Source: an uncultured Candidatus Rokubacteria bacterium (GTDB lineage: Bacteria > Methylomirabilota > Methylomirabilia > Rokubacteriales > CSP1-6). Taken from it: 64,000 nucleotides of DNA. This document shows, piece by piece, positions 5,726 through 45,198 of this stretch. Numbering within the stretch: position 1 is the first letter of the stretch; each line of letters opens with the position of its first letter. Below the pieces are notes generated by a model. That model had not been told where the DNA came from, did not search any database, and was given only the letters and a program-made list of their open reading frames with translations. Position numbers and translations under genes: made by a program. The DNA lies in assembly GCA_963771355.1 (NCBI GenBank), contig CAVYTA010000007.1, positions 282,423 through 346,422 of the forward strand. Reading direction: 5' to 3'.

Positions 5726-6013
5726 GTCACTGGCTGCGGGTGGGCGATGATACTCACCGCCCGCGCGGGGTGTCAAGCAACGCCCCCCATCGTCTCGCTC
5801 GACGATTTTTGAAGTCAGCACCCCAAATTGTGGCTGCCGGCGACTTCACGCCTGGCGGAGCAATGTCCAACTGAATGATTTCCCTGGATTATTTCAGGTC
5901 GAATAAGCTTCGATGACGGGCATGGCACTTGCTAGCATTGAGGACCGTACAGGTCGGCGACGCAGCTTGCGTACCGACCGAACTTATAAACCTAATTGAA
6001 TGTGGGAGGATCG

Positions 6014-6514
6014 ATGATGTTCACCTCAATGATGAAGGCGTTTCGCAGGACGGGGCGCGAGGAGGGATTCACCCTCGTCGAGCTTCTGATCGTGATCCTC
6101 ATCGTCGGCATTCTCGCGGCGGTGGCAATTCCTCTGTACCTGGGGTACACGAAGGATGCCAAGCTGGCTGAAGGCAAGGCGCTCCTGGGCTCGGTGATGA
6201 CGGCACTGCAGGGATGCGTGCAGGCCAAGGGCTCCGGGCAGAGCTGCTCGGTCAGCGAGATCGTCAATCGCGTCGGTGTCAGCACGGCCGGCGTGACGGG
6301 CGATGGGCGGTGGACGGTGACGACCTCGGGGAGCCTCGCGGTGTCCTCGACCTCGCCGCCGACCTTCAGCGGTACCATTCAGGCGGTCGGCACGGGTGCC
6401 GACACGGCCGCGCTCTCGCTGGGCATGTTCCCGACCACGACCGGTGTCTTCCTCCGTTGCAACTCCTCCAGCAGCACGCCGCCGTCGGGTCCCACCGCCG
6501 GCGAGCCCTGCTAG
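6014..6514 (+). CDS. pilA: Type IVa major pilin (prepilin with class III signal)
   Basis: ATG at 6014 with GGGAGGA 4-5 nt upstream; alternative ATGs at 6029 and 6032. Leader reads ...RTGREEG|FTLVELLIVILIVGILAAVAIP, i.e. G-1, F+1, E+5. Two Cys pairs (QGC...SC and C...C at the C-terminus). The C-terminal tail is Ser/Thr/Pro-rich: SSTSPPTFSG...TTTGVFLRCNSSSSTPPSGPTAGEPC. Confidence 0.85.
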   Translation: MMFTSMMKAFRRTGREEGFTLVELLIVILIVGILAAVAIPLYLGYTKDAKLAEGKALLGSVMTALQGCVQAKGSGQSCSVSEIVNRVGVSTAGVTGDGRWTVTTSGSLAVSSTSPPTFSGTIQAVGTGADTAALSLGMFPTTTGVFLRCNSSSSTPPSGPTAGEPC

Positions 6515-6533
6515 CCGAATTTCGTCGCAGCAC

Positions 6534-6566
6534 CCGGGGGTGACGGGGATGACCCGCCACCCCCGG
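6534..6566 (+). terminator. GC-rich stem-loop (about 9-bp stem, 15-nt loop) just after pilA; possible attenuator or partial terminator
   Basis: CCGGGGGTG...CACCCCCGG inverted repeat about 20 nt downstream of the pilA stop. No U-run follows. The position mirrors the pilA/downstream-gene attenuators of other T4P loci. Coordinates are +/-2. Confidence 0.3.
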
Positions 6567-6592
6567 CGTCATTCCCCCTCCTCTCGTCACCC

Positions 6593-8560
6593 ATGACCCC
6601 GCCCGGCACCGCCCCGATCGTCCGTGGCTTTCCGCGCTGGATCGACGGCACCCTCGTCATCCTCGCGGCGGTCGCCGCGTTTCTCCCCGGCATATTCGGC
6701 GGCTTCCTCGGCTGGGACGACGATCAGAACTTTCTCGAGAATCCCGGCTATCGGGGCCTGGGTCCCCGCCAGCTCGGGTGGATGCTCACCACCTTCCACA
6801 TGGGGCACTGGAAGCCGCTCACCTGGCTCACCCATGGCGTGGACTGGGCGCTGTGGGGGATGCACCCGCTCGGCTACAAGGCGGGGAGCATCGCGCTGCA
6901 CGTCGCCGCCACCCTGGCGTTTCTCGCGCTGGCGCGTCGGCTCCTGCGCCTGGCGCAGCCGGGGTACCCGCTCGACGCGGTGCGAGCGGGAGCTCTCGGC
7001 GCCGCGCTGCTCTTTGCCGTGCATCCGTTGCGCGTGGAGCCGGTGGCCTGGCTGAGCGCGCGCGGCGATCTCGTGGCCGGGCTCGTCGCATTCCTCAGCG
7101 TGCTGGCATATCTCCGGGGGACGCGGGCCGGGTACTGGATGTCCGTCGGCCTGTTCGCGGTGGCGCTCACGGGGAAATCCATGCCCGTGACCCTGCCGCT
7201 CGTGCTCCTCGTCCTCGATGTCTACCCGCTCCGCCGGCTCGGCCCCTTCGCGGAAGGCGGCCCGTCCATCGGCGGCTGGTGGAATCCGCCGGCCCGGCGG
7301 ATCTATCTCGAGAAGGCGCCTTTCCTCGTCCTGTCCGCCGCGGCCACCATCATGGCTGTCCTCGCGCGGATCGAGTTCGGAAGCCTCGCCGAGGTCAACG
7401 AGGTGGGGTGGGGCGCGCGCCTGGCTGCCAGCGTGTACGCGCTTGCCTTCCCCCTCTGGAAGATGGTGATCCCCGTAGGTCTCTCGCCTCTCTACGACCT
7501 CCGGGCGGCGCTGGGCCGCGGCCCCTGGCCCTTCGTCATGGCCGGCACGGCCGTCGCCGGGCTCACCGCGCTGGCGGTGGCGCGCGCCCGCCGCTGGCCG
7601 GCCTTCGCGGCGGTGTGGGCGTCCTACGTGATCATGCTGCTGCCGGTGTCGGGCCTCGTCCAGAACGGCCCTCAGATCGCAGCGGACCGCTATACCTATC
7701 TGGCCGGCGGAGGCTGGGCGCTGCTCGCCGGCGGTGGGCTCGCCTGGTGCGCCGCGCACGTGACGGCCCGCTCGCCGCGCGCCGCGCTCGCGCGGGGCGT
7801 GCTGGGTCTCATGGTGGCCGCCACGCTCGTCCTGGTGAGCGCAAGCGCGTGGCAGGCCCTCATCTGGCACAACTCGGTCACGCTCTGGTCGCGCGTGGTG
7901 GAGCTGGAGCCGGACGGCGCCATCGCGCGGACCGGGCTCGGCACCGCGCTGCTGGCCGACGGCCGGCCGCTCGAGGCCGCGGCCCACTACCGCCGCGCGC
8001 TGGAGATCTTCCCGCGGCTGCCCGAGGCGAATCTCGGGCTGGCTCTGATCCTGGCCGGCGAGGGCCGGGGCGCGGAGGCGCTGCTCCACGGGCGCCAGGC
8101 GGTGGCGCGTCAGCCGCAGCGGGCGGGATTCCGGATGGTGTTCGCCGAGATCCTCTGGGGCGCGGACCGGCGCGAGGAGTCGCTCGCCGAGCTGCGCGAA
8201 GGCGCGCGGCTGGCCCCCGCTGTCCCGCTCTTTCCCTACCTGCTCGCGGTCAAGCTCGCCCGGATGGGACGGGGACCGGAGGCCATCGCCGCGCTCGAGG
8301 AGGGCCGCCGGCTCGAGCGCGCCGCGTACCTCTCGGGTCTCGAGGGCGATCGATTCACGGCGCTGGTGTACGAGTCGATCGATCCCCCCACCGCCGTGGC
8401 CGCCTGGCAGCGCTACGTGATCGCGCTGAGCCGGGTGCCGCGGCCGACGGCGCTGCAGCTCAGCCAGCTTGCGTATGGTATCGCCGCGCTCGACGCGCTC
8501 ACGAAGAGCTCGGCGCCGCCCCGGGCGCTCCCCCCGGCGCCCTCAGGGACCTCTCGGTAG
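6593..8560 (+). CDS. Membrane GT-C-like (TMTC/DUF1736-like) glycosyltransferase candidate with TPR repeats, paralog 2 (tfpW-like position immediately downstream of pilA)
   Basis: 655 aa. GFLGWDDDQNFLENPGYRGLG first-loop motif. Shared blocks HMGHWKPLTWL, HPLRVEPVAWL and DRYTYLAGG. Roughly 11 TM segments, then a C-terminal TPR region (HYRRALEIFP, EANLGLALIL). Confidence 0.65.
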   Translation: MTPPGTAPIVRGFPRWIDGTLVILAAVAAFLPGIFGGFLGWDDDQNFLENPGYRGLGPRQLGWMLTTFHMGHWKPLTWLTHGVDWALWGMHPLGYKAGSIALHVAATLAFLALARRLLRLAQPGYPLDAVRAGALGAALLFAVHPLRVEPVAWLSARGDLVAGLVAFLSVLAYLRGTRAGYWMSVGLFAVALTGKSMPVTLPLVLLVLDVYPLRRLGPFAEGGPSIGGWWNPPARRIYLEKAPFLVLSAAATIMAVLARIEFGSLAEVNEVGWGARLAASVYALAFPLWKMVIPVGLSPLYDLRAALGRGPWPFVMAGTAVAGLTALAVARARRWPAFAAVWASYVIMLLPVSGLVQNGPQIAADRYTYLAGGGWALLAGGGLAWCAAHVTARSPRAALARGVLGLMVAATLVLVSASAWQALIWHNSVTLWSRVVELEPDGAIARTGLGTALLADGRPLEAAAHYRRALEIFPRLPEANLGLALILAGEGRGAEALLHGRQAVARQPQRAGFRMVFAEILWGADRREESLAELREGARLAPAVPLFPYLLAVKLARMGRGPEAIAALEEGRRLERAAYLSGLEGDRFTALVYESIDPPTAVAAWQRYVIALSRVPRPTALQLSQLAYGIAALDALTKSSAPPRALPPAPSGTSR

Positions 8561-8667
8561 GGCAACTCGCCACCACCTCGGGCGCAGCTCCACGTGCTCT
8601 CCGATACGCCGCAGCGGCCGTCACGCCGCCGACCCAGCGCAACCGGCGGGCGGGCGGGGAGCCACGC

Positions 8668-16073: not shown

Positions 16074-18181
16074 TGACCCGCCCGACCCCGCCGTCCCCGT
16101 GTGCGCTCGCCGGCCAGCGGGGCAGCGTCATCCTGATCAGCATCGTGCTCGTCTTCGTGATGACCCTGCTCGGCCTTGCGCTCTTCGAGCTGGGCGCGAT
16201 CGAGAACCGCATGTCGCTCTCCAGCGCCGCCGACGCGCGCGCGTTCGAGGTGGCGCAGGGGGGGATCGAGCGGGCCCTCCGCGAGCTCCAGGATGGCTTC
16301 GACGCTGACACCCAGGGGAGCGAGAGCTGGGCCGACAACGACGGCGTGCGGGCCCCCATCTGCTCCGCGTCCTGCGTCACCGGGGCGTATCGGCCGATGA
16401 CCCTCGCCAATACCAGCTTCCCCGGCGGAGGCAGCTACGCCGTTGAGATCATGCTGGTGACGGTGGCGCAGGCCAACGCGACCTCGCCGTATCCGATCGG
16501 CCTCAGCTGCTTCAGCAACGCGGCCAATGTCTGCACGAACCTCGTCTTCGTCCGCAGCACGGGAACGGTGACGGACAGCCCGGCGGGGGGCGCCACCTCG
16601 CCCGCGCCGGCCGGCTATACCGCGGTGAAGACGCTCCAGGTGCTGGCCCGGGCCTATGCGCCGTCCGTGTTCGCCAATGGCGTCGTGGCCGGCACGCCCT
16701 CCGCGCTCCAGCCGGTGAACGGTAATGTCCTCATCTCGGGCTCGGCGCAGATTCTCGGCGCCCCCGTGGGGGCCCTGTCCGCCATCAACTGGAACGGCGT
16801 GAACGCCGGCTTGCGAAATGATCTGAGCAATCTGATCGCCGACGCTCAGATCCTTCGCCGGCTGCCCGCCCAGCAAGCCGTTTGCGCGCCTACCGCCGTG
16901 CCGTGCGCCGTGCCGAACGTGTACTCGCTCGGGGCCGGGGCCCAGGTGGCCCGCCCGACCGGCATCGCCGCGATCACCCTCGCGGGCGGGGCCGCCATCG
17001 GCGGGGCCGCCGGCGCCGCCTACGCTACCGGCGGCAGCACGCCCGGCTCGCTCGCGGGCAAGGGGCCGCTCGATTCCATCTTCGTCGCCGATGGCTGCCA
17101 GAACAGCACGTGCGCCGATAGCTACGCGGTCACTGCCCCCTCGCAGCTTCCGATCGTCGACATGGGGGCCATCGGCCGCGCGTATCCCGAGAACCCGGTG
17201 GCGCCGTTCCCCACGCTGACGAGCCCGGTGCGCATCGCCGGCGTCACTTACGGGACCGGGCTCCAGAACTACTTCTCGACACGCGCGGCCAACATGACGG
17301 CCATGCTGTCCGCCAACGACATGCCCGGAACCGTTGGCGGTCTTACCTCGAGTACCAGCAACTGCTCCAATTCGGCGTGCAGTCCCATCACCGGCTTCAC
17401 GAACAAAGATGGCGCGGCACGGCTGGGGCGGATCTGCTGGACTCGCAATTCGGGGACCCTCACCTTCGGCGTGTCCACCGCCGGCGATCCCTGCAACTCG
17501 CCCGCTACCGCGGCCGACCCGCTGCTGGTCTACAACACCAGCGCGAACGGCTGGCGAATCGATCGAGGAGCCTTCTCCCGGTCCGACACCACCTGTCCAG
17601 GGACGCAGATCTGCTACACCGGCGTTGCGATCATCTACAATGCCAACTCGGTGTCGATCGAGGAGACGGTGACGAGCCTCTGCGGCGTCGCCAATTCGAA
17701 CTGCACCGCCGGGAACGAGAAGTTTCCGACCAACGATCTCATGGCGCTCCTCACGCCCGGCAATGTCAGCGTGGCCGCGACGACGACCAATGTCGTCGCG
17801 CGCGTGATGGCCATGCTCTACGCGGGGACGGACTTCGTCTCGCGCTCGGTGGTGCCGGCGACCCCCACGCGTATCGTGGGCGGCGTGGCAGCCAGTCGCT
17901 TCTGTTTCGGTGGCGGGGGGGCCTGCCCCGGCGGTACCTCGAACGCCCCCGAGATCTACCAGGCGCCACTGAACGGCTCGTCGTTGAACGCGACCCCGCC
18001 GGTGGCCCATGACGCACGTGGGCTGCCCAATGAGCTCCTCGCCCTAGCGCCGTCGCTCAATGGTCAGGCGCCGAAGCACTGGCGGGTGGAAAGCGTGCCC
18101 CGCCTGTGGCTCGAGTGCCGGCCCATCGCGCCCTCGGCGACCCTGCCCACCACGCCCACCGGCGCCTGCGGCTACAACTAG
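16073..18181 (+). CDS. PilX-N-domain protein with a large Cys-rich C-terminal region (PilX/PilY1-like tip-adhesin candidate)
   Basis: ATG 16073 overlaps the previous stop. N-terminus QRGSVILISIVLVFVMTLLGLALFELGAIENRMSLSSAADARAFEVAQGGIERAL matches the PilX_N pattern. 702 aa with more than 20 Cys in paired clusters. Confidence 0.6.
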   Translation: MTRPTPPSPCALAGQRGSVILISIVLVFVMTLLGLALFELGAIENRMSLSSAADARAFEVAQGGIERALRELQDGFDADTQGSESWADNDGVRAPICSASCVTGAYRPMTLANTSFPGGGSYAVEIMLVTVAQANATSPYPIGLSCFSNAANVCTNLVFVRSTGTVTDSPAGGATSPAPAGYTAVKTLQVLARAYAPSVFANGVVAGTPSALQPVNGNVLISGSAQILGAPVGALSAINWNGVNAGLRNDLSNLIADAQILRRLPAQQAVCAPTAVPCAVPNVYSLGAGAQVARPTGIAAITLAGGAAIGGAAGAAYATGGSTPGSLAGKGPLDSIFVADGCQNSTCADSYAVTAPSQLPIVDMGAIGRAYPENPVAPFPTLTSPVRIAGVTYGTGLQNYFSTRAANMTAMLSANDMPGTVGGLTSSTSNCSNSACSPITGFTNKDGAARLGRICWTRNSGTLTFGVSTAGDPCNSPATAADPLLVYNTSANGWRIDRGAFSRSDTTCPGTQICYTGVAIIYNANSVSIEETVTSLCGVANSNCTAGNEKFPTNDLMALLTPGNVSVAATTTNVVARVMAMLYAGTDFVSRSVVPATPTRIVGGVAASRFCFGGGGACPGGTSNAPEIYQAPLNGSSLNATPPVAHDARGLPNELLALAPSLNGQAPKHWRVESVPRLWLECRPIAPSATLPTTPTGACGYN

Positions 18182-18298: not shown

Positions 18299-19330
18299 AT
18301 GACCCCCAATTTCCTTCGCCGGCACCGGGTGGTGGGGCTGGACGTCGGCCACGGGTCCGTCAAGGCGCTGGCGCTGGAGCGTCGAGGCTCCCAAGAGATC
18401 GTGGTGGGGCGTGGGCTGACCCGGCTGGAGGGCAATCCCGACTCGCGACAGGTCGGGCAGGCCATCCACGCGGCACTTGCCGCCGCGGGGGCGGACGGCC
18501 AGCCGGTGATCGCGGCCGTGGGTGGTCCCGAGGTGGTCATCCGCCAGGTGTCGCTGCCGCCGGTGCCGCTCGCCCGCATCCTCCCCGCGCTGGAGATCCA
18601 GCACCGCGAGCTCGGCCTGCTCCCGCCCGCCGAGTCCGTGATGGACGCCCAGGTGCTCCGCCGCGCCAAGGATGGCGTCACGTCCGAGATCCTCGCCATC
18701 TGCGCGCCGCGCGTCCTGGTCGACGAGCGTACGAAGCTCCTCCAGCAGGCGGGCGTGAGGCTCCAGACGCTCGACGTGGAGCCGCTCGCGCTGCTGAACG
18801 CGGCGATCTACATCACCCAGCTCGAGCCGGGCGAGCTCCTGGTCCTGCTCAATGTCGGCCGACGGTCGTCCTCGCTCTGTCTCTTCAGCGAGCAGGGGCC
18901 GGTGGTCTCGCGCTACCTCGACATCGGCGCCGAGGCCTTCTTCGAGCAGCTGCGCGGTCCCGGCGGAGGAGCGGTCTACTCCCCCGAGGCGATGGCGCGG
19001 GCGCTGGCGCCCAGCGAGCTGGAGGGAGCCCAGTTCGCCTGCCGCGATCTCGTCGATCGCATCGCCGAGGACATCCGCCTCTCGCTGACGTTCTACCGGA
19101 CCGAGTACGACCGCGAGAGCCTGCCCCGCTACGCCATCGGCGGGTGGACGGAGCTGCCCCCCCTGGGCCGCTGGCTCGCGCAGCGAATCGGGCTCAACGC
19201 GCCGCTCGAGGTGATGGACCCGTTCAGGGCGGTGGAGGTGAAGATCACGCCGGCGGCGCCGGCGCGGGAGACCGGTGACACCGGCCCCCAGTACCTCCAG
19301 GCCTTCGGGCTCGCATTGAGGGGCCTGTGA
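18299..19330 (+). CDS. pilM: Type IV pilus assembly protein PilM (actin-like ATPase fold)
   Basis: 343 aa. VVGLDVGHGSVKALAL N-terminal actin-fold motif. Position is immediately upstream of the pilN/O/P/Q-like genes. Confidence 0.8.
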   Translation: MTPNFLRRHRVVGLDVGHGSVKALALERRGSQEIVVGRGLTRLEGNPDSRQVGQAIHAALAAAGADGQPVIAAVGGPEVVIRQVSLPPVPLARILPALEIQHRELGLLPPAESVMDAQVLRRAKDGVTSEILAICAPRVLVDERTKLLQQAGVRLQTLDVEPLALLNAAIYITQLEPGELLVLLNVGRRSSSLCLFSEQGPVVSRYLDIGAEAFFEQLRGPGGGAVYSPEAMARALAPSELEGAQFACRDLVDRIAEDIRLSLTFYRTEYDRESLPRYAIGGWTELPPLGRWLAQRIGLNAPLEVMDPFRAVEVKITPAAPARETGDTGPQYLQAFGLALRGL

Positions 19331-19962
19331 CTCGCCGCTTCAGCATCGACCTCATTCATCCCGGCCAGCTCTCCCTGACCTGGCAGGAATGGTTCGTCGG
19401 CAATCAGGGCGCGCGGCGCCTGGCGGCGGTCGCCCTCGCCGGCATCCTCGTGCTGGTGCTCATCATGGTCGGCGGCATCCTGCCGACCTACTGGCGCCTG
19501 TCGTCGGATCTCAACGCCATCCCGCGCCTCCAGAAGGACCTGGCGGCGTCGGAGGGCGACCTCAATGTCCTGCGGACCAACCTGCAGGCTCTCACGCTGG
19601 AGGCGCGGCGCCAGGTGCGCTGGGCCGGGCTCCTGGGCGCCCTCAGCCAGCACATTCCGCCCACCATACGCCTGCAGACGGTGGAGGCGTCGCGGCCCGC
19701 GCCGGCGGCGGGCGCCGCTCAGCCGCCCCCGGACGCGAAGGCGGAGGGCGTGCTGCGCATCGAGTCGGTCACGCCGGTGCGCTCGGGCAGCCAGCCGCTC
19801 CTGGAGGTGGCGCAGTTCATGGCCGGGCTCATGCGCGATCCCGCCGTGAATAAGCGGTTCCAGCTCAAGAGCTGGGACATCAAGCCGCCCGGCGGCGGGA
19901 GCGCGGAAGACGAGACCCAGTACCTCAACATCACCATCCTGCTCTCGGAGCGCGCCCAGTGA
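19327..19962 (+). CDS. pilN: PilN-like bitopic inner-membrane protein
   Basis: GTG overlaps the pilM stop (GTGA). Single TM LAAVALAGILVLVLIMVGGIL followed by a coiled-coil region. 211 aa. Confidence 0.6.
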   Translation: MTRRFSIDLIHPGQLSLTWQEWFVGNQGARRLAAVALAGILVLVLIMVGGILPTYWRLSSDLNAIPRLQKDLAASEGDLNVLRTNLQALTLEARRQVRWAGLLGALSQHIPPTIRLQTVEASRPAPAAGAAQPPPDAKAEGVLRIESVTPVRSGSQPLLEVAQFMAGLMRDPAVNKRFQLKSWDIKPPGGGSAEDETQYLNITILLSERAQ

Positions 19963-20630
19963 GAGGCCGCCCGCTCGCCCTCGCCTGGGTCGCGCTGGCG
20001 GTCGTCCTCGTGGTCCTCATCGGGGTGGCGCTCACGCAGTGGCGCTCGCTGGCCAGCCGCGGCCAGCGCGCATCGACCGAGCGGGTCCTCCTCGCCAATG
20101 AGATCCGGGCGAAGGAAGACCAGATCGTCACCTTGATGCGCGCCAACGTGGGATTGCTCCAGGAGATGCAGTGGACGTCGGCGGGCGGCGACCCGGCCGC
20201 CTTTCTCACCCGGCTGGCCGACCTCGCGCGCGAGAAGCGCATGAAGGTGATCGGCATCGGTCCCCTCGAGCGGTCCGCCACCGCGCAGTTCAACAAGTCG
20301 TGGCACACCATCCAGGTCGTGGGCCCCTACCGCGAGCTGCGCGACCTCGCCGGGCGCGTGGAGACGGAGAAGGGCATCCTCGAGGACGTCACGGTGACGG
20401 CGATCAAGGATGGAGGCCGCCTGGGCGCGTCGCGGGCGGACGAGATCGAGGCTCGCTTCAAGATGACCGCGCTCGAGCTGACGCCGGACGCGCGCAAGGT
20501 GTTCGAGCGCGCGATGGCGGCGAGTGGCGGGGCGGCCGCGGGCGCGACCGCCCCGTCGCTGGCGCTGCCCCTGCCGGCGGCGCCGGCGGAGGTCGGGAGC
20601 GATGCGCGCGATCCCTTCGCCATGACTACG
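19959..20630 (+). CDS. pilO: PilO-like protein; the reading frame continues without a stop (see finding)
   Basis: GTG overlaps the pilN stop. TM LALAWVALAVVLVVLIGVAL. PilO-like core ...WHTIQVVGPYRELRDLAGRVE.... The frame then runs into a Pro/Ala linker containing an RDPF motif (about 20607-20618). No in-frame stop occurs before pilQ, so the 3-prime end is undefined. Confidence 0.55.
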
Positions 20631-20730
20631 GCGATGCGCCGTCCGGCGCCGCCGGCAGGGGGCCGCCCGGCCGGCCGGCCCCTCCGCGGCCGGCCCCTCT
20701 CCGGCGGGGCCGGCCAGCGAGCCGCGCCCG

Positions 20731-20943
20731 GTGGGGTTCGAGCTGAAGGGGATCGTGGCCTTTCCCGGCGGCTATCTCGCCATCGTGAACAATCAGATCG
20801 TCAAGACCGGCGACACGGTCCTGGGCCACCGCGTCGAGCGGATCGCCGAGGACATGGTCGTCTTTCGCGAACCGGGCGGCGGCACCCGACAGGTGACCCT
20901 TCCCGGCCTGACCGAGGGGCCCCCCGGCGGGCCGAGGAGGTGA
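20731..20943 (+). CDS. pilP: PilP C-terminal beta-domain (in +1 frame relative to pilO; no own signal peptide)
   Basis: 70 aa from GTG: GFELKGIVAFPGGYLAIVNNQIVKTGDTVLGHRVERIAEDMVVFREPGG matches the PilP beta-sandwich pattern. An upstream stop in this frame lies at about 20623. Confidence 0.5.
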   Translation: MGFELKGIVAFPGGYLAIVNNQIVKTGDTVLGHRVERIAEDMVVFREPGGGTRQVTLPGLTEGPPGGPRR

Positions 20944-20951
20944 GGGACGCC

Positions 20952-22631
20952 ATGCAGGTCCGCATCCGTCGACTGGTGGGATTGCTCGTTCTCGCCCTGC
21001 TGGCGCTGCCCGCCGCCGCCCTCGCCCAGGGGCCGTGCGCCGATCGGCTGCCGACCGAGCGCATCACGCTCAACCTGCGCGATGCCAACGTCCAGACCAC
21101 GCTGCGCCTCCTCGCCCAGCAGTACCGCGTCAACATGGTCGTCACCGACGAGGTGAAGGGCACCATCACGCTCGACTTCTACCAGGTGCCCGCGCGTGAC
21201 ATCTTCCAGGTGGTGATCGACGCCGCCAATCTCCAGTGCGTGGAGGTCGGCGGCGTGCTGCGCGTGTCGAGCTTCTCCCGCCTCCGCGCGGAGGACGAGG
21301 AGCGGCGTAACGCGGCCGCGGAGCGCGGGCGGCGAGAGGCGGAGGCGGCCAAGAAGCAGGTGGAGGCCGACCGCGACCGGGACGACTTCGAGAAGGTGAA
21401 GGCGCGCGGCGCGGTCAAGGAGAAAACTATCCGCCTCTCCTACGCGAATGCGGAGGAGGTGGCCAAGACCATCCTCGGCATCCTCGGCCTGCCGCCGGAA
21501 GGTGCGCTGCCGCCCGCGGCGCCCATTCCCGGCGCGTACCTGCCGCCGCCCCCCATCAATATCCCGTCCACGCCGCCGCCCCCGCCCACCTCGCCCTTCG
21601 CGTCCACCGCCCTGGTCTCGCTCCCGGCCGAGGCCCTGGCCAAGGGGCTCACCGTGCGGGCCTACAAGCCCACCAATTCGGTGTTCATCCGCTACTACGA
21701 GCACGACCTCGAGCGGATCGAGAAGCTGATCAAGGAGCAGCTCGACATCCCGCTGCCCCAGGTGCAGATCGCCGCCACCATGGTCATCACCACCCAGAAC
21801 GCGCTGGAGCAGCTGGGCGTGCAATGGGGCGGCGCGGCCATCGGGAAGACGGCCGACGGCCGGGGACCCGCGGTGGTGGGCTCCGGCTTCGCCACCCCGC
21901 GCACCACCGGGACCGCGGGAACCGGCGTGGTGAACGGCCCCTTCAGCCCCAACACCAACTTCACCGGCTCCGATCTCCTGCCGGTGGCGCCCTCCACCGG
22001 GCTGCCCCTCGGCCAGAACCTCGTCAACCTCCCCACCTCGTTCCTGCCCACCCTGGCCAACCCCGCGATGGGAGTGCTCTTCGGCCTGGTGGGCGCGAAC
22101 TACAACGTGAGCCTCGCCATCCAGGCCCTCGAGCTGCAGGGGAAGGCCCGGAAGATCTCGGAGCCCAAGATCGTCACGGTGGAGAACGCCACCGCCGAGA
22201 TCTCCCGCGGATTCGAGGTGCCGTTCACGAGCTCCCCCACCGCGGACGTCTCCAACGTGCAGTTCAAGGACGCCCTGCTGCGATTGCAGGTGACGCCCAA
22301 CGTGATCTACGCCGACGGCGTGACCAAGATCCGCATGAAGATCCTCGTGGAGAACAACGAGCCGGACTTCACGCGGTCCATCAGCGGCAACCCGCCCATC
22401 TTCAAGCGGCGGACCGAGACGGAGGTGGTGGTGCAGGAGGGCGAGAAGCTGGTGATCGGCGGCGTCATGCTCGACAACTCGTCCAAGACCATCCGCAGCG
22501 TGCCGGTGCTGAGCAGGATCCCCATTTTCGGCTGGCTGTTCAAGTCCCGCGAGCTCAACTCCGACGGCGAGGAGCTGGTGGTCGTGCTGACGCCTTCGGT
22601 GGTCTCCTCCGGCCAGACGGCGGGGAGGTAG
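20952..22631 (+). CDS. pilQ: Type IV pilus secretin PilQ
   Basis: ATG 20952 sits 6 nt after GGAGGTGA. Signal peptide LVGLLVLALLALPAAALAQG. Secretin signature ...VPVLSRIPIFGWLFKSRELNSDGEELVVVLTP. 559 aa. Confidence 0.85.
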   Translation: MQVRIRRLVGLLVLALLALPAAALAQGPCADRLPTERITLNLRDANVQTTLRLLAQQYRVNMVVTDEVKGTITLDFYQVPARDIFQVVIDAANLQCVEVGGVLRVSSFSRLRAEDEERRNAAAERGRREAEAAKKQVEADRDRDDFEKVKARGAVKEKTIRLSYANAEEVAKTILGILGLPPEGALPPAAPIPGAYLPPPPINIPSTPPPPPTSPFASTALVSLPAEALAKGLTVRAYKPTNSVFIRYYEHDLERIEKLIKEQLDIPLPQVQIAATMVITTQNALEQLGVQWGGAAIGKTADGRGPAVVGSGFATPRTTGTAGTGVVNGPFSPNTNFTGSDLLPVAPSTGLPLGQNLVNLPTSFLPTLANPAMGVLFGLVGANYNVSLAIQALELQGKARKISEPKIVTVENATAEISRGFEVPFTSSPTADVSNVQFKDALLRLQVTPNVIYADGVTKIRMKILVENNEPDFTRSISGNPPIFKRRTETEVVVQEGEKLVIGGVMLDNSSKTIRSVPVLSRIPIFGWLFKSRELNSDGEELVVVLTPSVVSSGQTAGR

Positions 22632-22635
22632 CGCG

Positions 22636-24369
22636 ATGTACGAAGCCTTCTTCAGCCTCGACGACTCGCCCTTCGTCCTCACGCCCGATCCTCGGTTCCT
22701 GCTCCGCTCGAAGAGCCATCACGAGATCCTCTCCACCCTCCTCTACGGGATCACCAGCCAGAAGGGCCTGATCGCCCTCATCGGCGACGTGGGGACCGGG
22801 AAGACCACGCTGTGCCGGGCCCTGCTGCGCGAGCTGCCCGGCGAGGTGCAGAGCGCGCTGGTCCTCAACCCGCACCTCTCGGAGGCCGAGCTGGTGGGGA
22901 CCATCCTCGACGACCTCGGGATCGAGCGGCGCGGATCCACCAAGGGTGAGCTCATGACCACCCTGAACCAGCACCTCCTCGCCGCGGGGGCGGACGGCAA
23001 GACGGTGGTGGTCGTCCTCGACGAGGCCCAGCAGATGACCGACGAGGCCCTCGAGCAGATCCGCATCCTCTCCACGCTGGAGACGGCCACCCGCAAGCTG
23101 CTCCAGATCGTGCTCGCCGGGCAACCGGAGCTGGAGGAAAAGCTCCAGCGTCGCGAGCTGCGGCAGCTCGACCAGCGGATCGGCATCCGCTGCTACCTCG
23201 AGCCCCTGAGCCGGAAGGATACGTATCGCTACATCGAGCACCGGCTGCGCGTCGCCGGACTCCCCGGCTCGGTGCCCTTCACCCGCGCGGCGATGGCGCG
23301 CATCTTCCACTACAGCGGGGGCGTGCCCCGCGTCATCAACCTCGTGTGCGACCGGGCCCTCATGGCCGCCTTCGGCGCGCGCGCGCGCGAGATCACGCCG
23401 GCCATGGTGCGTACGGCGGCGCGGAACCTGGAGGGGCGGAGCGGGGGGCGGCGACGACGGGCCCGCGTTCCCCAGCGGCCCATCCTTCGCCGGCTCGCGA
23501 CGGCGGCGGGGCTCACCGGGCTCGTGGTCCTGGGCGGTGCGGCGGCCGGCTCGCAGCTCTCGGGCTGGACCCTGCCGTCGCTGCGGCTGGGCGCCGCCGA
23601 CTCCACGGCGTCGGCGCCGCCGTCCCCGTCCGCTCCCGTCGCGCTCGCCGCGCTGGTGCCGGTGACGACCGCACCCGCAGCTCCCCTCCTGCCCGCGTCC
23701 CCGGTACCGGTCTCGCCGCCGGAGGCGACGTCACCGGCGGAGCCGGCGCGGAGCCTCCTCGCGCGGCTGCTGCGCCTCTGGGGCGTGAGCGACGAGCTCG
23801 GCGCGCCCGTCGTCGCCGCGTGGCCGGTGGACGCGGGCGGAGGGCCGGACATCGCGGCGGTGGCCGGGCGCTATCACCTCACCGCCACCGTGCTCCGCGA
23901 CGTCTCCGTGAGCGACCTGCGCGCGGTGGGCTTGCCCGCGATCGTCGAGCTCGGCGAGCGCGGCGCCGTGCGCCCGTATCTCGTACGCCGGCTCGAGCGG
24001 GACGCCGCCACCCTCATCGCCCCGACGGGTGAGGAGTCGCGAGTGCCCCTCGAGCGACTGGAGGCGGCGTGGACCCGCTCCGCCTGGGTGCTCTGGCGGA
24101 ACGTCGATCTGCTGCCCGTCGATCCCGCCGAGGCGATGTCGCCCACGGTGGTGGCCACGGTGGCGCTGCGCCTTGCCAAGCTCGGGCATCTCACGGGGGC
24201 GCTGTCCACCGTCCCCGATGGGCGCTTCCAGGCGGCGGTGCGCAGCTTCCAGCGCGCGGCCGGCCTCCAGGAGGATGGCGTGGTGGGGCCGCGCACGACC
24301 CTGGCCCTCGCCCGCGCCACCACGGCGCCGTTCGGGCCCAGTCTCATCGATCGCCGGCCATCCGGATGA
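22636..24369 (+). CDS. ExeA/GspA/MshM-like AAA ATPase with C-terminal peptidoglycan-binding domain
   Basis: Walker A GDVGTGKTT, Walker B VVVVLDEAQ. The C-terminus LAKLGHLTGALSTVPDGRFQAAVRSFQRAAGLQEDGVVGPRTTLAL fits PG_binding_1. A long Pro/Ala-rich linker separates the two domains. Confidence 0.75.
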   Translation: MYEAFFSLDDSPFVLTPDPRFLLRSKSHHEILSTLLYGITSQKGLIALIGDVGTGKTTLCRALLRELPGEVQSALVLNPHLSEAELVGTILDDLGIERRGSTKGELMTTLNQHLLAAGADGKTVVVVLDEAQQMTDEALEQIRILSTLETATRKLLQIVLAGQPELEEKLQRRELRQLDQRIGIRCYLEPLSRKDTYRYIEHRLRVAGLPGSVPFTRAAMARIFHYSGGVPRVINLVCDRALMAAFGARAREITPAMVRTAARNLEGRSGGRRRRARVPQRPILRRLATAAGLTGLVVLGGAAAGSQLSGWTLPSLRLGAADSTASAPPSPSAPVALAALVPVTTAPAAPLLPASPVPVSPPEATSPAEPARSLLARLLRLWGVSDELGAPVVAAWPVDAGGGPDIAAVAGRYHLTATVLRDVSVSDLRAVGLPAIVELGERGAVRPYLVRRLERDAATLIAPTGEESRVPLERLEAAWTRSAWVLWRNVDLLPVDPAEAMSPTVVATVALRLAKLGHLTGALSTVPDGRFQAAVRSFQRAAGLQEDGVVGPRTTLALARATTAPFGPSLIDRRPSG

Positions 24370-24379
24370 GGCGCCGCGC

Positions 24380-25027
24380 GTGAGCCGGCTCTTCGACAGG
24401 CTCGCCGGGCTCGACCGGGGCCGCGCGCGCCCGGCGGGAATGGGTAACCTCTCGATTCTAGAGCCGTCCCGGGGACGCAGAGGGTCATGGCGTCTGATCG
24501 GCTCTTTGGTTATCCTACTGTGTATGGTCGCCGTCCTGGCTGCGGTGTCGGCTCGCCTTCTGAACCCGGCGGCCGTACCGGCCAGCCCCGTCCCCCCCGC
24601 CCCCTCCGTGCCGGTCTCCGAAACCGAGAGCCCCGTGGAACCGCTGCGCGCCTCCGTCTCCCCGCTGCTCGCCCAGGGCCTCGAGGCAGCGCAGCGAGGC
24701 GAGCTGGCCGATGCCGAGGGCTATTTCCGCCGGGCGGTGGCGCAGGACGCGGGAGACGCGGAGGCGTGGAACAGCCTCGGGGTGGTGCTCGTTCGCCAGG
24801 GGGAGCAAGCGCAGGGGGTGGAGGCGCTGCGGAAGGCCCTGCGGATGCAGCCGTCGCACATCGAGGCGCATCGGAATCTCGGCGTGGCGCTCGATCGACA
24901 GGGCCGGGCGGGAGAGGCCGCGGAGCACTACCGCTTCTTCCTCTCGCTCACCACCGATGCCCATCCCGGCCGCGGCGACGTGCGCCGCCGGCTCCTCGAG
25001 CTGGGCTCGGTCCGCACCGGCGTATGA
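24380..25027 (+). CDS. TPR-repeat protein with N-terminal TM (MshN-like position)
   Basis: GTG 24380 (alternative ATG 24440). TM LIGSLVILLCMVAVLAAV. TPRs: AEGYFRRAVAQDAGDAEAWNSLGVVLVRQGE..., IEAHRNLGVALDRQGRAGEAAEHY. Confidence 0.55.
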   Translation: MSRLFDRLAGLDRGRARPAGMGNLSILEPSRGRRGSWRLIGSLVILLCMVAVLAAVSARLLNPAAVPASPVPPAPSVPVSETESPVEPLRASVSPLLAQGLEAAQRGELADAEGYFRRAVAQDAGDAEAWNSLGVVLVRQGEQAQGVEALRKALRMQPSHIEAHRNLGVALDRQGRAGEAAEHYRFFLSLTTDAHPGRGDVRRRLLELGSVRTGV

Positions 25028-42115: not shown

Positions 42116-43000
42116 ATGGGACTGGTCGCTGCCGTCCTCGCCTCGCTGCGCCCGCGGCAGTGGGCGAAGAACCTCTTCGTCTTCGCGGGCGTCATCTTCT
42201 CGCAACAGCTGTTCACTCCCCAGGTGTGGCGGGCGGTGGCCGCGTTCGCGCTCTTCTGCGCGCTCTCCGGCGCCATCTACCTCCTGAACGACGTGGCGGA
42301 CGCGGAGAAAGACCGCCTGCATCCCACCAAGCGCCGCCGGCCGGTGGCCTCGGGCGCGCTGTCCCGCGGGCTCGCGCTGGGCATCGGCGTCGCCCTCCTC
42401 GCGGCGAGCGTGGTGGTGTCGTTCGGCCTGGGGGTCCCCTTCGGCCTGGTGGCGGTCAGCTACGGGGTGCTCCTCACCGCGTACTCTGTGTGGCTGAAGC
42501 ACCTCGTCATCCTCGACGTGCTCACGGTGGCGGTGGGCTTCGTGCTCCGGGCGGTGGCGGGGGCGGTGGCGGTGGGCGCGGACATCTCCGGGTGGCTGCT
42601 CATCTGCACCGTGCTCATCGCGCTCTTCCTCGCGCTGGGCAAGCGCCGGCACGAGTACCTCATGTTGAAGGGAGCCGCCGCCGCCCATCGACCCATCCTG
42701 GCCGAGTACAGCGAGGGGTTCATCGACCAGATGATCGCGGTGGTCACGTCCTCGGCGGTGACCGCTTACGCGCTCTACACCATGTCGCCGGAGACGGTGG
42801 CCAAGTTCCATACCCGGCTGCTGCCGCTCACGCTGCCCTTCGTGCTCTACGGGATCTTCCGCTACCTCTACCTCCTCTACCGCCGTGAGCTGGGCGGCAA
42901 TCCCTCGGACCTCGTCCTGTCCGACCGCTCGCTCCTGCTGAACACCACCCTCTGGATGGCCGCCGTCCTCGTGCTGATCTACGGCCCGTGGGGACGTTGA
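42116..43000 (+). CDS. UbiA-family polyprenyl-phosphate phosphoribosyltransferase (decaprenyl-phosphate 5-phosphoribosyltransferase, Rv3806c-like)
   Basis: 294 aa with 8-9 TM segments. The motif NDVADAEKDRLHPTKRRRPVASG matches, as I recall it, the NDxxDxxxDRxHPTKRxRPIAxG signature of DPPR synthases. Confidence 0.7.
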   Translation: MGLVAAVLASLRPRQWAKNLFVFAGVIFSQQLFTPQVWRAVAAFALFCALSGAIYLLNDVADAEKDRLHPTKRRRPVASGALSRGLALGIGVALLAASVVVSFGLGVPFGLVAVSYGVLLTAYSVWLKHLVILDVLTVAVGFVLRAVAGAVAVGADISGWLLICTVLIALFLALGKRRHEYLMLKGAAAAHRPILAEYSEGFIDQMIAVVTSSAVTAYALYTMSPETVAKFHTRLLPLTLPFVLYGIFRYLYLLYRRELGGNPSDLVLSDRSLLLNTTLWMAAVLVLIYGPWGR

Positions 43001-45198
43001 CCCTCCCGGTCGCGCGCGCGGCCGTGGCGGGGTGGGGCCGCTTTCCCGTCCGTCCCGGGCGGGTGGTGCGTCCCGAGCGGCTGGAGCTTCCCGCGGGCGA
43101 GTCCCTGGTGCTGCCGCGCGGACTGGGTCGCGCCTACGGCGACGCGGCGGTGCCCTGGCGCGAGGCGACCCTGGTGCTGGAGACCGGGCGCGCCGACCGC
43201 ATCCTCGACTGGGATCCCGTGACCGGCCGGCTCACTGCGGAAGCGGGGCTGTCCCTGTCCGAGGTGCTGCGGCTCTTCGTCCCCCGCGGCTGGTTCCCGC
43301 CCGTGACCCCGGGGACCAAGTTCGTGACCCTGGGCGGGTGCGTGGCCACGGACGTGCACGGCAAGAACCACCACCGAGACGGCTCCTTCGCCAGCTTCGT
43401 GGACCGGCTCACCCTGCTGACCGCGGAGGGGAAGACGGTGGCATGCGGGCCCGACCTCGAGCGGGAGCTCTTCCTCGCCACCGTGGGCGGGATGGGGCTC
43501 ACCGGCCTCATCACCGAGGTGACCCTCCGCCTGCGGCCGGTCGAGTCGGGCTGGATCGTCATGGAGAGCGAGGGCGTGCCGGACCTCGATCACATGGTGA
43601 GCGCCCTGGAATCGAGCGGCCGGGACTGGCCCTATACCGTGGGCTGGATCGACTGCCTGGCCTCGGGCGCCGGGCTGGGGCGCGGCGTGCTGCTGCGCGG
43701 CCGTCACGCCGCGCGCGCGGAGGTCCCGGGCGACGATCCGCGCGCGCGGCGCACCCTGCGCGTGCCCCTGGACGCCCCCGAGTGGCTCCTCAGCCCGCCC
43801 GCCATGCGCGCCTTCAACGGGCTTTACTACTGGCTCAAGGCCGGCCGGCGCGGCGGCGGCCGCGCGGGGGCCCGGCCCCACCTCGTCTCCTACGAGTCCT
43901 TCTTCTACCCGCTGGACGCGCTCGGCGACTGGAATCGCCTCTACGGCCGGCGCGGCTTTCTCCAGTACCAGTGCGTGGTGCCCCGGGCGGTCGGGCGGGC
44001 GGCGACGCGCGAGCTCCTGGAGCGTCTCGCGCACGCGGGGGCGGCGTCCTTCCTCGCCGTGATCAAGGACTGCGGGCCTGCCGGCCCCGCGCCCCTCTCG
44101 TTCCCGCTGGAGGGAATCACCCTGGCGCTGGACTTGCCCCACCGGGGGCCGCCCACCGTGGCCCTCGTGCATGAGCTCAACGCCACCGTGATGGCGGCGG
44201 GCGGCCGCATCTATCTCGCCAAGGATGCCGTCACGCGCGCGGAGGACTTCGCGCGCATGACCCCGCGCCTGGCCGAATGGCAGGCGCTCCGGGACCGCTG
44301 GGATCCCGCGCGGCGCTTCCGCTCCGCCATGTCGGTGCGCCTCTTCGGTGACGGAGTTGATTGGCGAGCCGCAGCCGCAGGCGAGGCGAGCGGATATGGT
44401 GGAGCTTTCCGAGCGGAGCGAGGGGGGCGAGCCGCAGCCGCAGGCGAGGCGAGCGGATACATGAAAGCGGTGTTCGTGGGCGCCACGCGCGGCATGGGCA
44501 AGGCGCTCGCCCGGCGTATGGCCGAGCGGGCCGACGCACTGTACCTCCTGGGCCGCGACGCGGAGGGGCTGGCCCTCGCCGCGCGCGACCTGGAGGCACG
44601 CGGAGCCCGCGCCCCGGTGCGGTCGGGCCCGCTGGACCTGGGCGATCCCGGAGGCTTCGTGGCCGCCCTCGACGCGGCCGACGCGGCCCTCGATCGCTTC
44701 GACACCCTGGTGATCACCGCCGGGCTCTTCGGCGCCCAGGACGCCCTCGCCGCGGACGCGGCGCGGCTCGAGCGGCTGTTCAGCGTCAACTTCACGGGCA
44801 CCGCGCTGCTGTGCCAGCTCGCCGCCGACCGCTTGGCCGAGCGCGGGGGCGGGGTCATCTGCGCCTTCAGCTCGGTGGCGGGGGATCGCGCGCGGGCCGC
44901 CAACTACCTCTACGGCGCCTCCAAGGCGGGGCTCTCGGCCTTTCTTGACGGGCTGGGTCTCGCCTACGCCGACCGCGACGTCCGGGTGGTCTGCGTGCGG
45001 CCCGGCTTCGTGCGCACGGAGATGACCGCCGGCCTGCCCGAGCCTCCCTTCGCGGGCGAGCCGGACACGGTGGCGACGTCGGCGCTCCGGGCCATGGACG
45101 CGGGATCCCCTCGGGTCTACAGCCCCGGCATCTGGCGCTGGATCATGGGCGTGATCCGCGCCTTGCCGCGGTCGGTGGTGCGACGGCTGCGCGTCTAG
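42988..45198 (+). CDS. Fused DprE1-like FAD oxidoreductase (to about 44352) and DprE2-like short-chain dehydrogenase (from about 44461): polyprenyl-phospho-ribose 2-prime epimerase-type enzyme
   Basis: Single 736-aa ORF; GTG 42988 overlaps the ubiA 3-prime end by 13 nt. DprE1-like blocks: TGWGRF, RGLGRAYGD, TLGGCVATDVHGKNHH, ATVGGMGLTGLI, GFLQYQCVVP, APLSFPLEG. After a roughly 40-aa linker comes the SDR domain: VFVGATRGMGKAL (Rossmann) and NYLYGASKAG (YxxxK). No stop separates the two domains. Confidence 0.75.
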   Translation: MGTLTLPVARAAVAGWGRFPVRPGRVVRPERLELPAGESLVLPRGLGRAYGDAAVPWREATLVLETGRADRILDWDPVTGRLTAEAGLSLSEVLRLFVPRGWFPPVTPGTKFVTLGGCVATDVHGKNHHRDGSFASFVDRLTLLTAEGKTVACGPDLERELFLATVGGMGLTGLITEVTLRLRPVESGWIVMESEGVPDLDHMVSALESSGRDWPYTVGWIDCLASGAGLGRGVLLRGRHAARAEVPGDDPRARRTLRVPLDAPEWLLSPPAMRAFNGLYYWLKAGRRGGGRAGARPHLVSYESFFYPLDALGDWNRLYGRRGFLQYQCVVPRAVGRAATRELLERLAHAGAASFLAVIKDCGPAGPAPLSFPLEGITLALDLPHRGPPTVALVHELNATVMAAGGRIYLAKDAVTRAEDFARMTPRLAEWQALRDRWDPARRFRSAMSVRLFGDGVDWRAAAAGEASGYGGAFRAERGGRAAAAGEASGYMKAVFVGATRGMGKALARRMAERADALYLLGRDAEGLALAARDLEARGARAPVRSGPLDLGDPGGFVAALDAADAALDRFDTLVITAGLFGAQDALAADAARLERLFSVNFTGTALLCQLAADRLAERGGGVICAFSSVAGDRARAANYLYGASKAGLSAFLDGLGLAYADRDVRVVCVRPGFVRTEMTAGLPEPPFAGEPDTVATSALRAMDAGSPRVYSPGIWRWIMGVIRALPRSVVRRLRV
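44364..44459 (+). repeat. Perfect 33-nt direct repeat (two copies, 63 nt apart) inside the DprE1-DprE2 linker
   Basis: gcgagccgcagccgcaggcgaggcgagcggata occurs at about 44364-44396 and again at 44427-44459. It encodes RAAAAGEASGY twice, in frame. Coordinates are +/-1. Confidence 0.5.

Follow-up and report, generated by a model that had tools for sequence, protein, structure and literature searches.

Does the pilO gene of an uncultured Candidatus Rokubacteria bacterium end in a separate pilP gene that has lost its start, in a fusion joined by ribosomal slippage, or in a fusion interrupted by a single base? The question is raised by contig CAVYTA010000007.1, of which a stretch of 64,000 nucleotides (nt), hereafter the window, was analysed. 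The frame that encodes PilO runs on there without a stop into the secretin gene pilQ, and a beta domain of the type found in PilP is encoded between them in the +1 frame. We consider it very likely that positions 19959-20943 make up one fused gene of the PilO-PilP type, encoding 327 amino acids (aa), and that an extra G at 20668/20669 is an assembly or consensus error. The features of the gene are as follows.

19959..20522, plus strand: PilO-like part, residues 1-188, with transmembrane (TM) helix, coiled coil and ferredoxin-like core (AlphaFold2 model, Foldseek)
20523..20742, plus strand: disordered Pro/Ala/Gly linker, which holds the frame break (pLDDT <50 at residues 190-256)
20607..20618, plus strand: RDPF motif in the pilO frame; R217, D218, P219 and F220 are each at least 90% conserved in 38 aligned relatives
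20623..20625, plus strand: TGA, the last upstream stop of the +1 (beta-domain) frame (three-frame translation)
20668..20669, plus strand: GG, the site of the frame-breaking extra base, which eight other assemblies lack
20671..20705, plus strand: 15-nt imperfect tandem (Tandem Repeats Finder: period 15, 2.3 copies, 85% matches, score 56)
20743..20943, plus strand: HR beta domain (PilP/GspC/GspB fold), C-terminal tail and stop codon

The frame break and the extra base

The open reading frame (ORF) beginning at GTG 19959 is free of stops as far as 22631. Its 890 aa contain the RDPF motif, then Arg-rich nonsense and finally PilQ, which is included in frame; an exact-protein look-up returned no record of this readthrough product. 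The beta domain (GFELKGIVAFPGGYLAIVNNQ...) is encoded in the +1 frame, with no stop or start codon at the switch from the pilO frame. The first possible start in the +1 frame is GTG 20731, which would give 70 aa, and the stop is at 20941-20943. Three statements of the original prediction are thereby borne out, namely that the pilO frame stays open through RDPF and an Arg-rich stretch into pilQ, that the beta domain lies in the +1 frame with a stop at about 20623 upstream, and that this frame has no signal peptide or lipobox, there being no start before 20731.

Base composition places the change of frame within the linker. GC at the third codon position passes from the pilO phase to the +1 phase between approximately 20650 and 20700. 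When codon-position GC was segmented over the whole window by the Viterbi method, this was the sole plus-strand change of frame without a stop, apart from a 98-nt excursion at 44347-44444. The only other stop-less frame changes found in the window are on the minus strand, in a CHASE2-cyclase gene (approximately 12284-13500) that is spread over three frames. The excursion at 44347-44444 lies within the ORF 42988-45198; the composition strays into another frame for the 98 nt and then the original frame resumes, which may be a compositional oddity or the result of two compensating indels.

Near-identical contigs, 98.3-100% identical to the window, were retrieved by exact-protein look-up of the neighbouring genes, and one further sequence, L031 from a JGI metagenome, was found by pattern scan and was not aligned to the window. 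Compared to the window, all the sequences that cross the junction lack one base at 20669. These make up eight assemblies (L001/L034, L002/L032/L036, L003, L010, L011, L031, L033 and L035), which include long-read-style contigs from ENA, Logan short-read contigs and the JGI metagenome; the seven that were aligned are 98.3-99.95% identical to the window. The window reads CCCGGCCGG where the other assemblies read CCCGCCGG or CCGGCCGG. Over a wider stretch the window has GCCCGGCCGGCCGG, the others have GCCCGCCGGCCGG and L033 has GCCGGCCGGCCGG. In the 4 kb compared, only two positions separate L011 from the window, and the extra G is one of them. Deletion of the G yields a 984-nt ORF at 19959-20943, whose 327-aa product is the same as the protein encoded by L001, a contig of 1.15 Mb.

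L033, a SPAdes contig of low coverage (positions 1-530, ERZ25418745 NODE_566873, coverage about 2x), carries the variant CCGGCCGG where others carry CCCGCCGG. The window sequence CCCGGCCGG resembles a merge of these two alleles, as might be expected if a polymorphic site had given rise to a consensus artefact. L033 was found through the 70-aa ORF, and it was considered as a second frameshifted copy. This was rejected since it has the normal length and no indel; what interrupts its ORF is an in-frame TAG within the linker (CCGTAGCTG compared to CCGTCGCTG).

The 15-nt tandem noticed in the original prediction does exist, but the shift is not inside it, since the extra G sits 2-4 nt upstream. Such a repeat would seldom arise by chance: of 5000 mononucleotide shuffles of 20600-20730, 32 contained an exact repeat of 12 nt or longer whose copies lay no more than 30 nt apart. 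In the true frame the tandem codes for AGPSA/AGPSP, and the five near-identical sequences displayed for this region all have it in frame. The tandem was rejected as the cause of the shift because intact strains have it in frame and 15 is a multiple of three.

Relatives and folds of the intact protein

A conceptual join of both frames was used as the query against a protein collection. More than 120 single proteins, about 296-355 aa in length, cover 100% of the joined query; the best of them, P0001, is 98% identical and also has 327 aa, and the repaired product of the window gene differs from it at one residue. The length of the single protein in the Methylomirabilota/Rokubacteria-type relatives is put at about 310-360 aa. 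In an alignment of 38 relatives both domains are conserved and the linker varies in length and sequence. Twelve genome loci were examined from metagenome-assembled genomes (MAGs) of the Methylomirabilota/Rokubacteria type, including short-read ones from 2016 (such as GWA2_70_23 and GWC2_70_16). The RDPF motif is found in all 12, and in 10 of them there is one ORF which contains it and has PRR or LRR at the C terminus. The exceptions are L026, which has a different C-terminal tail, and L022, which runs into pilQ. In the latter (positions 6001-7650; MAG MFD00962.bin.2.205, contig_9420) the pilO-pilP ORF passes the HR domain and enters pilQ-like sequence, to a length of 549 aa; this appears to be a second case, from a different genome, of the gene being broken by an indel.

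None of the relatives examined has a separate lipoprotein pilP at this position. The comparison of the gene in relatives, which the original prediction had proposed as a check, thus came out in favour of a fusion. In a scan of genome contigs the best match was 83% identical to the window gene. Genes up to 83% identical were also seen in MAGs labelled Candidatus Nitrosocosmicus (an archaeon), Verrucomicrobiia, Binatia and Thermoanaerobaculia (L015, L019, L028 and L029); these labels are probably due to mis-binning or contamination of the MAGs concerned.

An exhaustive profile search gave about 2,500 matches at E<=0.001. About 50 clusters (50% identity) were found at E<=1e-30, consisting of full-length family proteins and their fragments. 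Among the 150 best, matches weaker than about E=1e-10 are mostly of about 150-230 aa and cover only the part from RDPF through the linker to the HR domain. When ten such stand-alone relatives (165-181 aa) were rescanned, they gave matches to T2SSB, CdsD_C or T2SSC.

The intact protein was modelled with AlphaFold2 using the alignment of 38 sequences. The model has a TM helix and coiled coil (a helix at residues 4-62), an alpha/beta ferredoxin-like core at 79-174, a helix at 176-188, a disordered segment at 190-256 and a six-stranded beta domain at 262-313. Its N-terminal part thus has the bitopic topology of PilO, ie an N-terminal TM helix, a coiled coil and a ferredoxin-like periplasmic core, and the top Foldseek matches to this part in the PDB are PilO structures (3jc8_Oa, 8.2e-6; 2rjz, 2.5e-4; 5uvr, 8.1e-4). 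The C-terminal part is a beta-sandwich whose fold matches the HR domains of PilP, GspC and GspB.

Sequence profiles gave fainter signals. The window protein has no match to PF04350 (PilO), and three of the 38 relatives match it below threshold (best E=0.04); a match to the NCBIfam model for GspM scores 16 bits against a cut-off of 60. PF04351 (PilP) matches neither the window domain nor the 38 relatives nor the ten stand-alone relatives. The family that does recur is PF16537, T2SSB (GspB), with a gathering threshold of 28.4 bits: the window domain scores 18.3 bits (E=0.0018), and 36 of the 38 relatives match with a best E of 2.2e-4, all under the cut-off. The stand-alone relative P0225 scores 30.5 bits against T2SSB. 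A profile of the 38 relatives run against all PDB sequences gave nothing meaningful. No lipoprotein signal peptide with a lipobox was found for the window domain, and in the relatives the HR domain is internal to an ORF that is led by PilO. As the curated thresholds are not reached, the assignments to PilO and PilP rest on predicted folds, gene order and weak profile matches. The label PilP that the original prediction gave to the beta domain therefore keeps its basis in HR fold and gene position and loses that in profile searches, in which the Pfam PilP threshold is not reached and T2SSB alone appears, below its own; PilP is best taken as an assignment at the level of fold and position.

Error, mutation or recoding

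Circumstantial evidence favours an error over a mutation as the origin of the extra base. The 100 nt at 20636-20735, which contain it, are the most GC-rich of the window, at 92% GC compared to 71% for the whole. Logan contigs, short-read assemblies of SRA runs from the same population, start or end at 20508, 20553, 20639 and 20709, and in a GTDB MAG the gene is split over two contigs within the linker (L023/L030). Single-base indel errors of MAGs at sites of high GC or short repeats are alike in being private one-base differences, here at the GC maximum, and the sister long-read-style contigs L002, L035 and L001 have gene-splitting indels of their own. The naming of the sister contigs, and of the contig of L022, as 'contig_N' suggests a long-read assembly, and in L022 it is the pilO-pilP ORF itself that runs on into pilQ. 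L002 and L035 have more than 20 indels each in approximately 8-12 kb.

Two other private length differences were seen in these comparisons. At 8583, in the intergenic region between ORFs that end at 8560 and 8668, the window has a second one-G difference (GGGCGCAGC, compared to GGGCGGCAGC in L034 and L035). L001/L034 has a private extra C at window position 17046, where all the other assemblies agree with the window. It splits a 702-aa PilX_N-like gene (window 16073-18181) into 349 and 339 aa, and is probably an indel error of that assembly.

Some points weigh against our reading of a fused gene with a spurious base. The window is otherwise clean over the approximately 19 kb compared, with only two private indels, and so is not generally noisy. 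Neither domain reaches a curated Pfam or NCBIfam threshold and the profile search of the PDB was blank. A genuine and recent mutation in this population also keeps some probability, as the error is called from a comparison of assemblies. Such a mutation, a very recent frameshift of this strain or population inactivating the fused gene, is in our view unlikely. It would leave a PilO without its HR domain, read through Arg-rich nonsense into pilQ, and so a pilus-defective variant; a leaky rescue might come from occasional spontaneous +1 slippage within the linker (CCC-C at 20680-20683 is one candidate place). The extra base is, after all, present in the sequence as given, the local assembly has just the two private indels already mentioned, and natural populations commonly contain variants that have lost the function of a surface structure. 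A +1 shift anywhere from 20626 to about 20730 would restore a functional fusion, and would be tolerable because the linker is disordered and variable. Against this, the base is absent from all eight independent assemblies of the same population, some of them 99.9-99.95% identical, all other genes of the pilus cluster are intact, and assemblies demonstrably fail at this site, at which GC reaches its maximum for the window. The other private indel of the window is likewise a single G and is non-coding, which fits random consensus error better than selection. It is highly improbable that the extra G is not only real but forms part of a switch, in which a short (CCGG/GGCC)n tract by the 15-nt tandem would turn the pilus on and off, by mutation or in translation, by uncoupling the secretin-docking HR domain from PilO. 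Were it so, a reversion, or +1 slippage where the linker tolerates it, would bring function back, and an uncultured soil phylum would have a type IV pilus whose phase variation acts through the alignment complex.

Two further explanations are contradicted by the relatives. Programmed +1 ribosomal frameshifting at a slippery site in or near the tandem would join the PilO and beta-domain frames and set a regulated ratio of products. Sites of the CCC-C type are prone to +1 slippage by tRNA-Pro, and the in-frame CCC followed by C at 20680-20683 resembles them; moreover, the 0 frame is free of stops, so that termination near the site would not be expected. Conservation is to be expected of a programmed site, yet the eight near-identical assemblies and the 38 aligned relatives are all in frame, and the unshifted product would be an implausible 890-aa chimera of PilO, nonsense and PilQ. 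No stimulatory element (in-frame stop, pause of the rare-codon type or upstream Shine-Dalgarno sequence) was apparent by eye, no formal scan being run. We regard this explanation as exceedingly improbable. The original prediction had offered a fusion made after a +1 shift, by indel or by slippage; the fusion and the one-base indel stand, on the single-protein relatives and the PilO and HR folds, and slippage as a designed mechanism goes unsupported, the eight assemblies and the full-length relatives examined being in frame at the DNA level. It had also offered a lost pilP start. In the canonical systems of Pseudomonas, Neisseria and Myxococcus a separate lipoprotein PilP is encoded between PilO and PilQ, and PDB entries for such proteins were among the structures matched, so that pilO and pilP might have been separate ancestrally, with the pilO stop and the pilP start and signal peptide lost here. 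The chance of this is practically nil. Relatives down to about 42% identity have no separate pilP at the position, with or without signal peptide and lipobox; all those examined have one ORF with an RDPF linker, and near-identical strains are a single base away from the window. For this lineage a history of separate genes is refuted by the single-ORF relatives. The frameshift itself is ordinary, and most likely artefactual.

The pilus cluster and the work of the fused protein

The surroundings of the fused gene are a complete type IVa pilus cluster, of which the nearest genes are as follows.

18299..19330, plus strand: pilM, 343 aa (Pfam PilM_2, E=2.7e-12, over cut-off); a 343-aa gene is also called in relatives
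19327..19962, plus strand: gene in the pilN position, 211 aa, between pilM and pilO with a 4-nt overlap with each
20952..22631, plus strand: pilQ secretin, 559 aa (Pfam Secretin, E=3.8e-39; Secretin_N over cut-off)
22636..24369, plus strand: GspA/ExeA-like gene, 577 aa, AAA+ ATPase with peptidoglycan-binding domain (Pfam AAA_22, E=5.3e-27; PG_binding_1, E=1.1e-9)

The order pilM-pilN-pilO-(pilP)-pilQ is present in the window and is kept in near-identical loci. In the loci inspected for gene order the fusion ORF is directly upstream of the secretin gene; L028, for example, has the fusion ORF and then a secretin ORF. The protein in the pilN position has no Pfam or NCBIfam match, and exact copies of it are encoded on 22 contigs that were read. 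The pilQ product matches the GspD N0 domain at 23.1 bits, under the cut-off, and scores 274.6 bits against TIGR02515 (PilQ), where the cut-off is 284. The cluster also contains minor pilins, a PilX_N-like protein, a TPR protein, a PilB/GspE ATPase, a PilC/GspF platform protein and a PilS/PilR-like two-component pair. Apart from pilO-pilP, all its genes are intact in the window. The GspA/ExeA-like gene and a 215-aa TPR gene (together 22636-25027) stand directly 3' of pilQ, within the type IVa pilus cluster.

Away from the pilus genes, the minus-strand CHASE2-guanylate cyclase gene appears to be in fragments. Its cyclase domain is whole within the ORF 11544-12284; beside it, at 12284-13500, the upstream CHASE2-like segments are scattered over three frames. 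This CHASE2 stretch of approximately 1.1 kb has many indels and substitutions compared to L034, L035 and L036, which are otherwise 97-99% identical. A pseudogene in decay, hypervariability of this stretch and consensus noise from collapsed strains are all possible explanations.

The fused protein can be set beside three known types of protein. It is like the PilO of type IVa pili (Pseudomonas aeruginosa 2rjz/5uvr, Myxococcus xanthus 3jc8) in its TM helix, long coiled coil and ferredoxin-like periplasmic core, and in the place of its gene, after pilM and a gene in the pilN position and before the secretin gene. These structures are its best fold matches, but the sequence identity is about 13-17%, below the PF04350 threshold, and canonical PilO does not have the C-terminal extension of about 140 aa formed by the linker and the HR domain. 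The likeness to the PilP lipoprotein (P. aeruginosa 2lc4/2y4y, Neisseria meningitidis 2ivw/4av2, M. xanthus 3jc8_P) lies in a flexible R-x-P-F region ahead of the domain and in a gene immediately upstream of pilQ. In contrast to that lipoprotein, the domain here has no signal peptide, lipobox or start of its own and is covalently fused to the C terminus of PilO.

GspB/OutB (T2SSB, 4wfw) is the only Pfam family matched repeatedly, at sub-threshold scores. As in GspB and GspC (3oss), the HR domain is held at the inner membrane by a TM helix, not by a lipid; the membrane-proximal part, which differs from the N-termini of those two proteins, is a module of PilO fold in a pilMNOQ cluster with PilB/PilC and minor pilins. 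Compared to GspC there is no PDZ domain, and compared to GspB no C-terminal extension of the GspB type. According to a paper on OutB (PMC9239104), GspB, GspC and PilP have HR domains of a common fold, which bind the N-terminal domain of the secretin, and the usual partner of GspB is GspA, an AAA+ protein with a peptidoglycan-binding domain. A GspA-like gene of this kind is in the cluster here too, although pilQ stands between it and the fusion gene. GspA is usually treated as a type II secretion accessory paired with GspB; here PilO carries, by fusion, the sole HR domain found in the region examined.

The partners of the fused protein are suggested by its position and fold. The TM helix, coiled coil and ferredoxin-like core would act as PilO, pairing with the protein in the pilN position, which would in turn link them to cytoplasmic PilM. 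The periplasm would be spanned by the flexible, RDPF-containing Pro/Ala linker, and the C-terminal HR domain would dock on the N0 domain of PilQ, possibly together with the GspA-like protein. A single polypeptide would then do the work of both PilO and the lipoprotein PilP of Pseudomonas or Myxococcus, with a membrane anchor provided by the PilO helix and not by a lipid.

For annotation, a one-base error creates a chimeric ORF of 890 aa (PilO, nonsense and PilQ) and an orphan ORF of 70 aa, which annotators should repair; the right annotation would be a single 327-aa gene at 19959-20943 with one base removed. The literature searched does not describe a PilO-PilP fusion, and the architecture is apparently an undescribed, if modest, variation on a known machine. 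It makes a modest point about modularity and introduces no new mechanism. The fusion is intermediate between type IV pili, with PilO and a lipoprotein PilP, and type II secretion systems, in which the HR proteins GspC and GspB have a TM-helix anchor. A whole lineage, of the Methylomirabilota/Rokubacteria type, would use an HR domain covalently fused to PilO to tie the secretin to the alignment complex of the inner membrane, which implies that both the lipid anchor of PilP and its existence as a separate polypeptide are dispensable.

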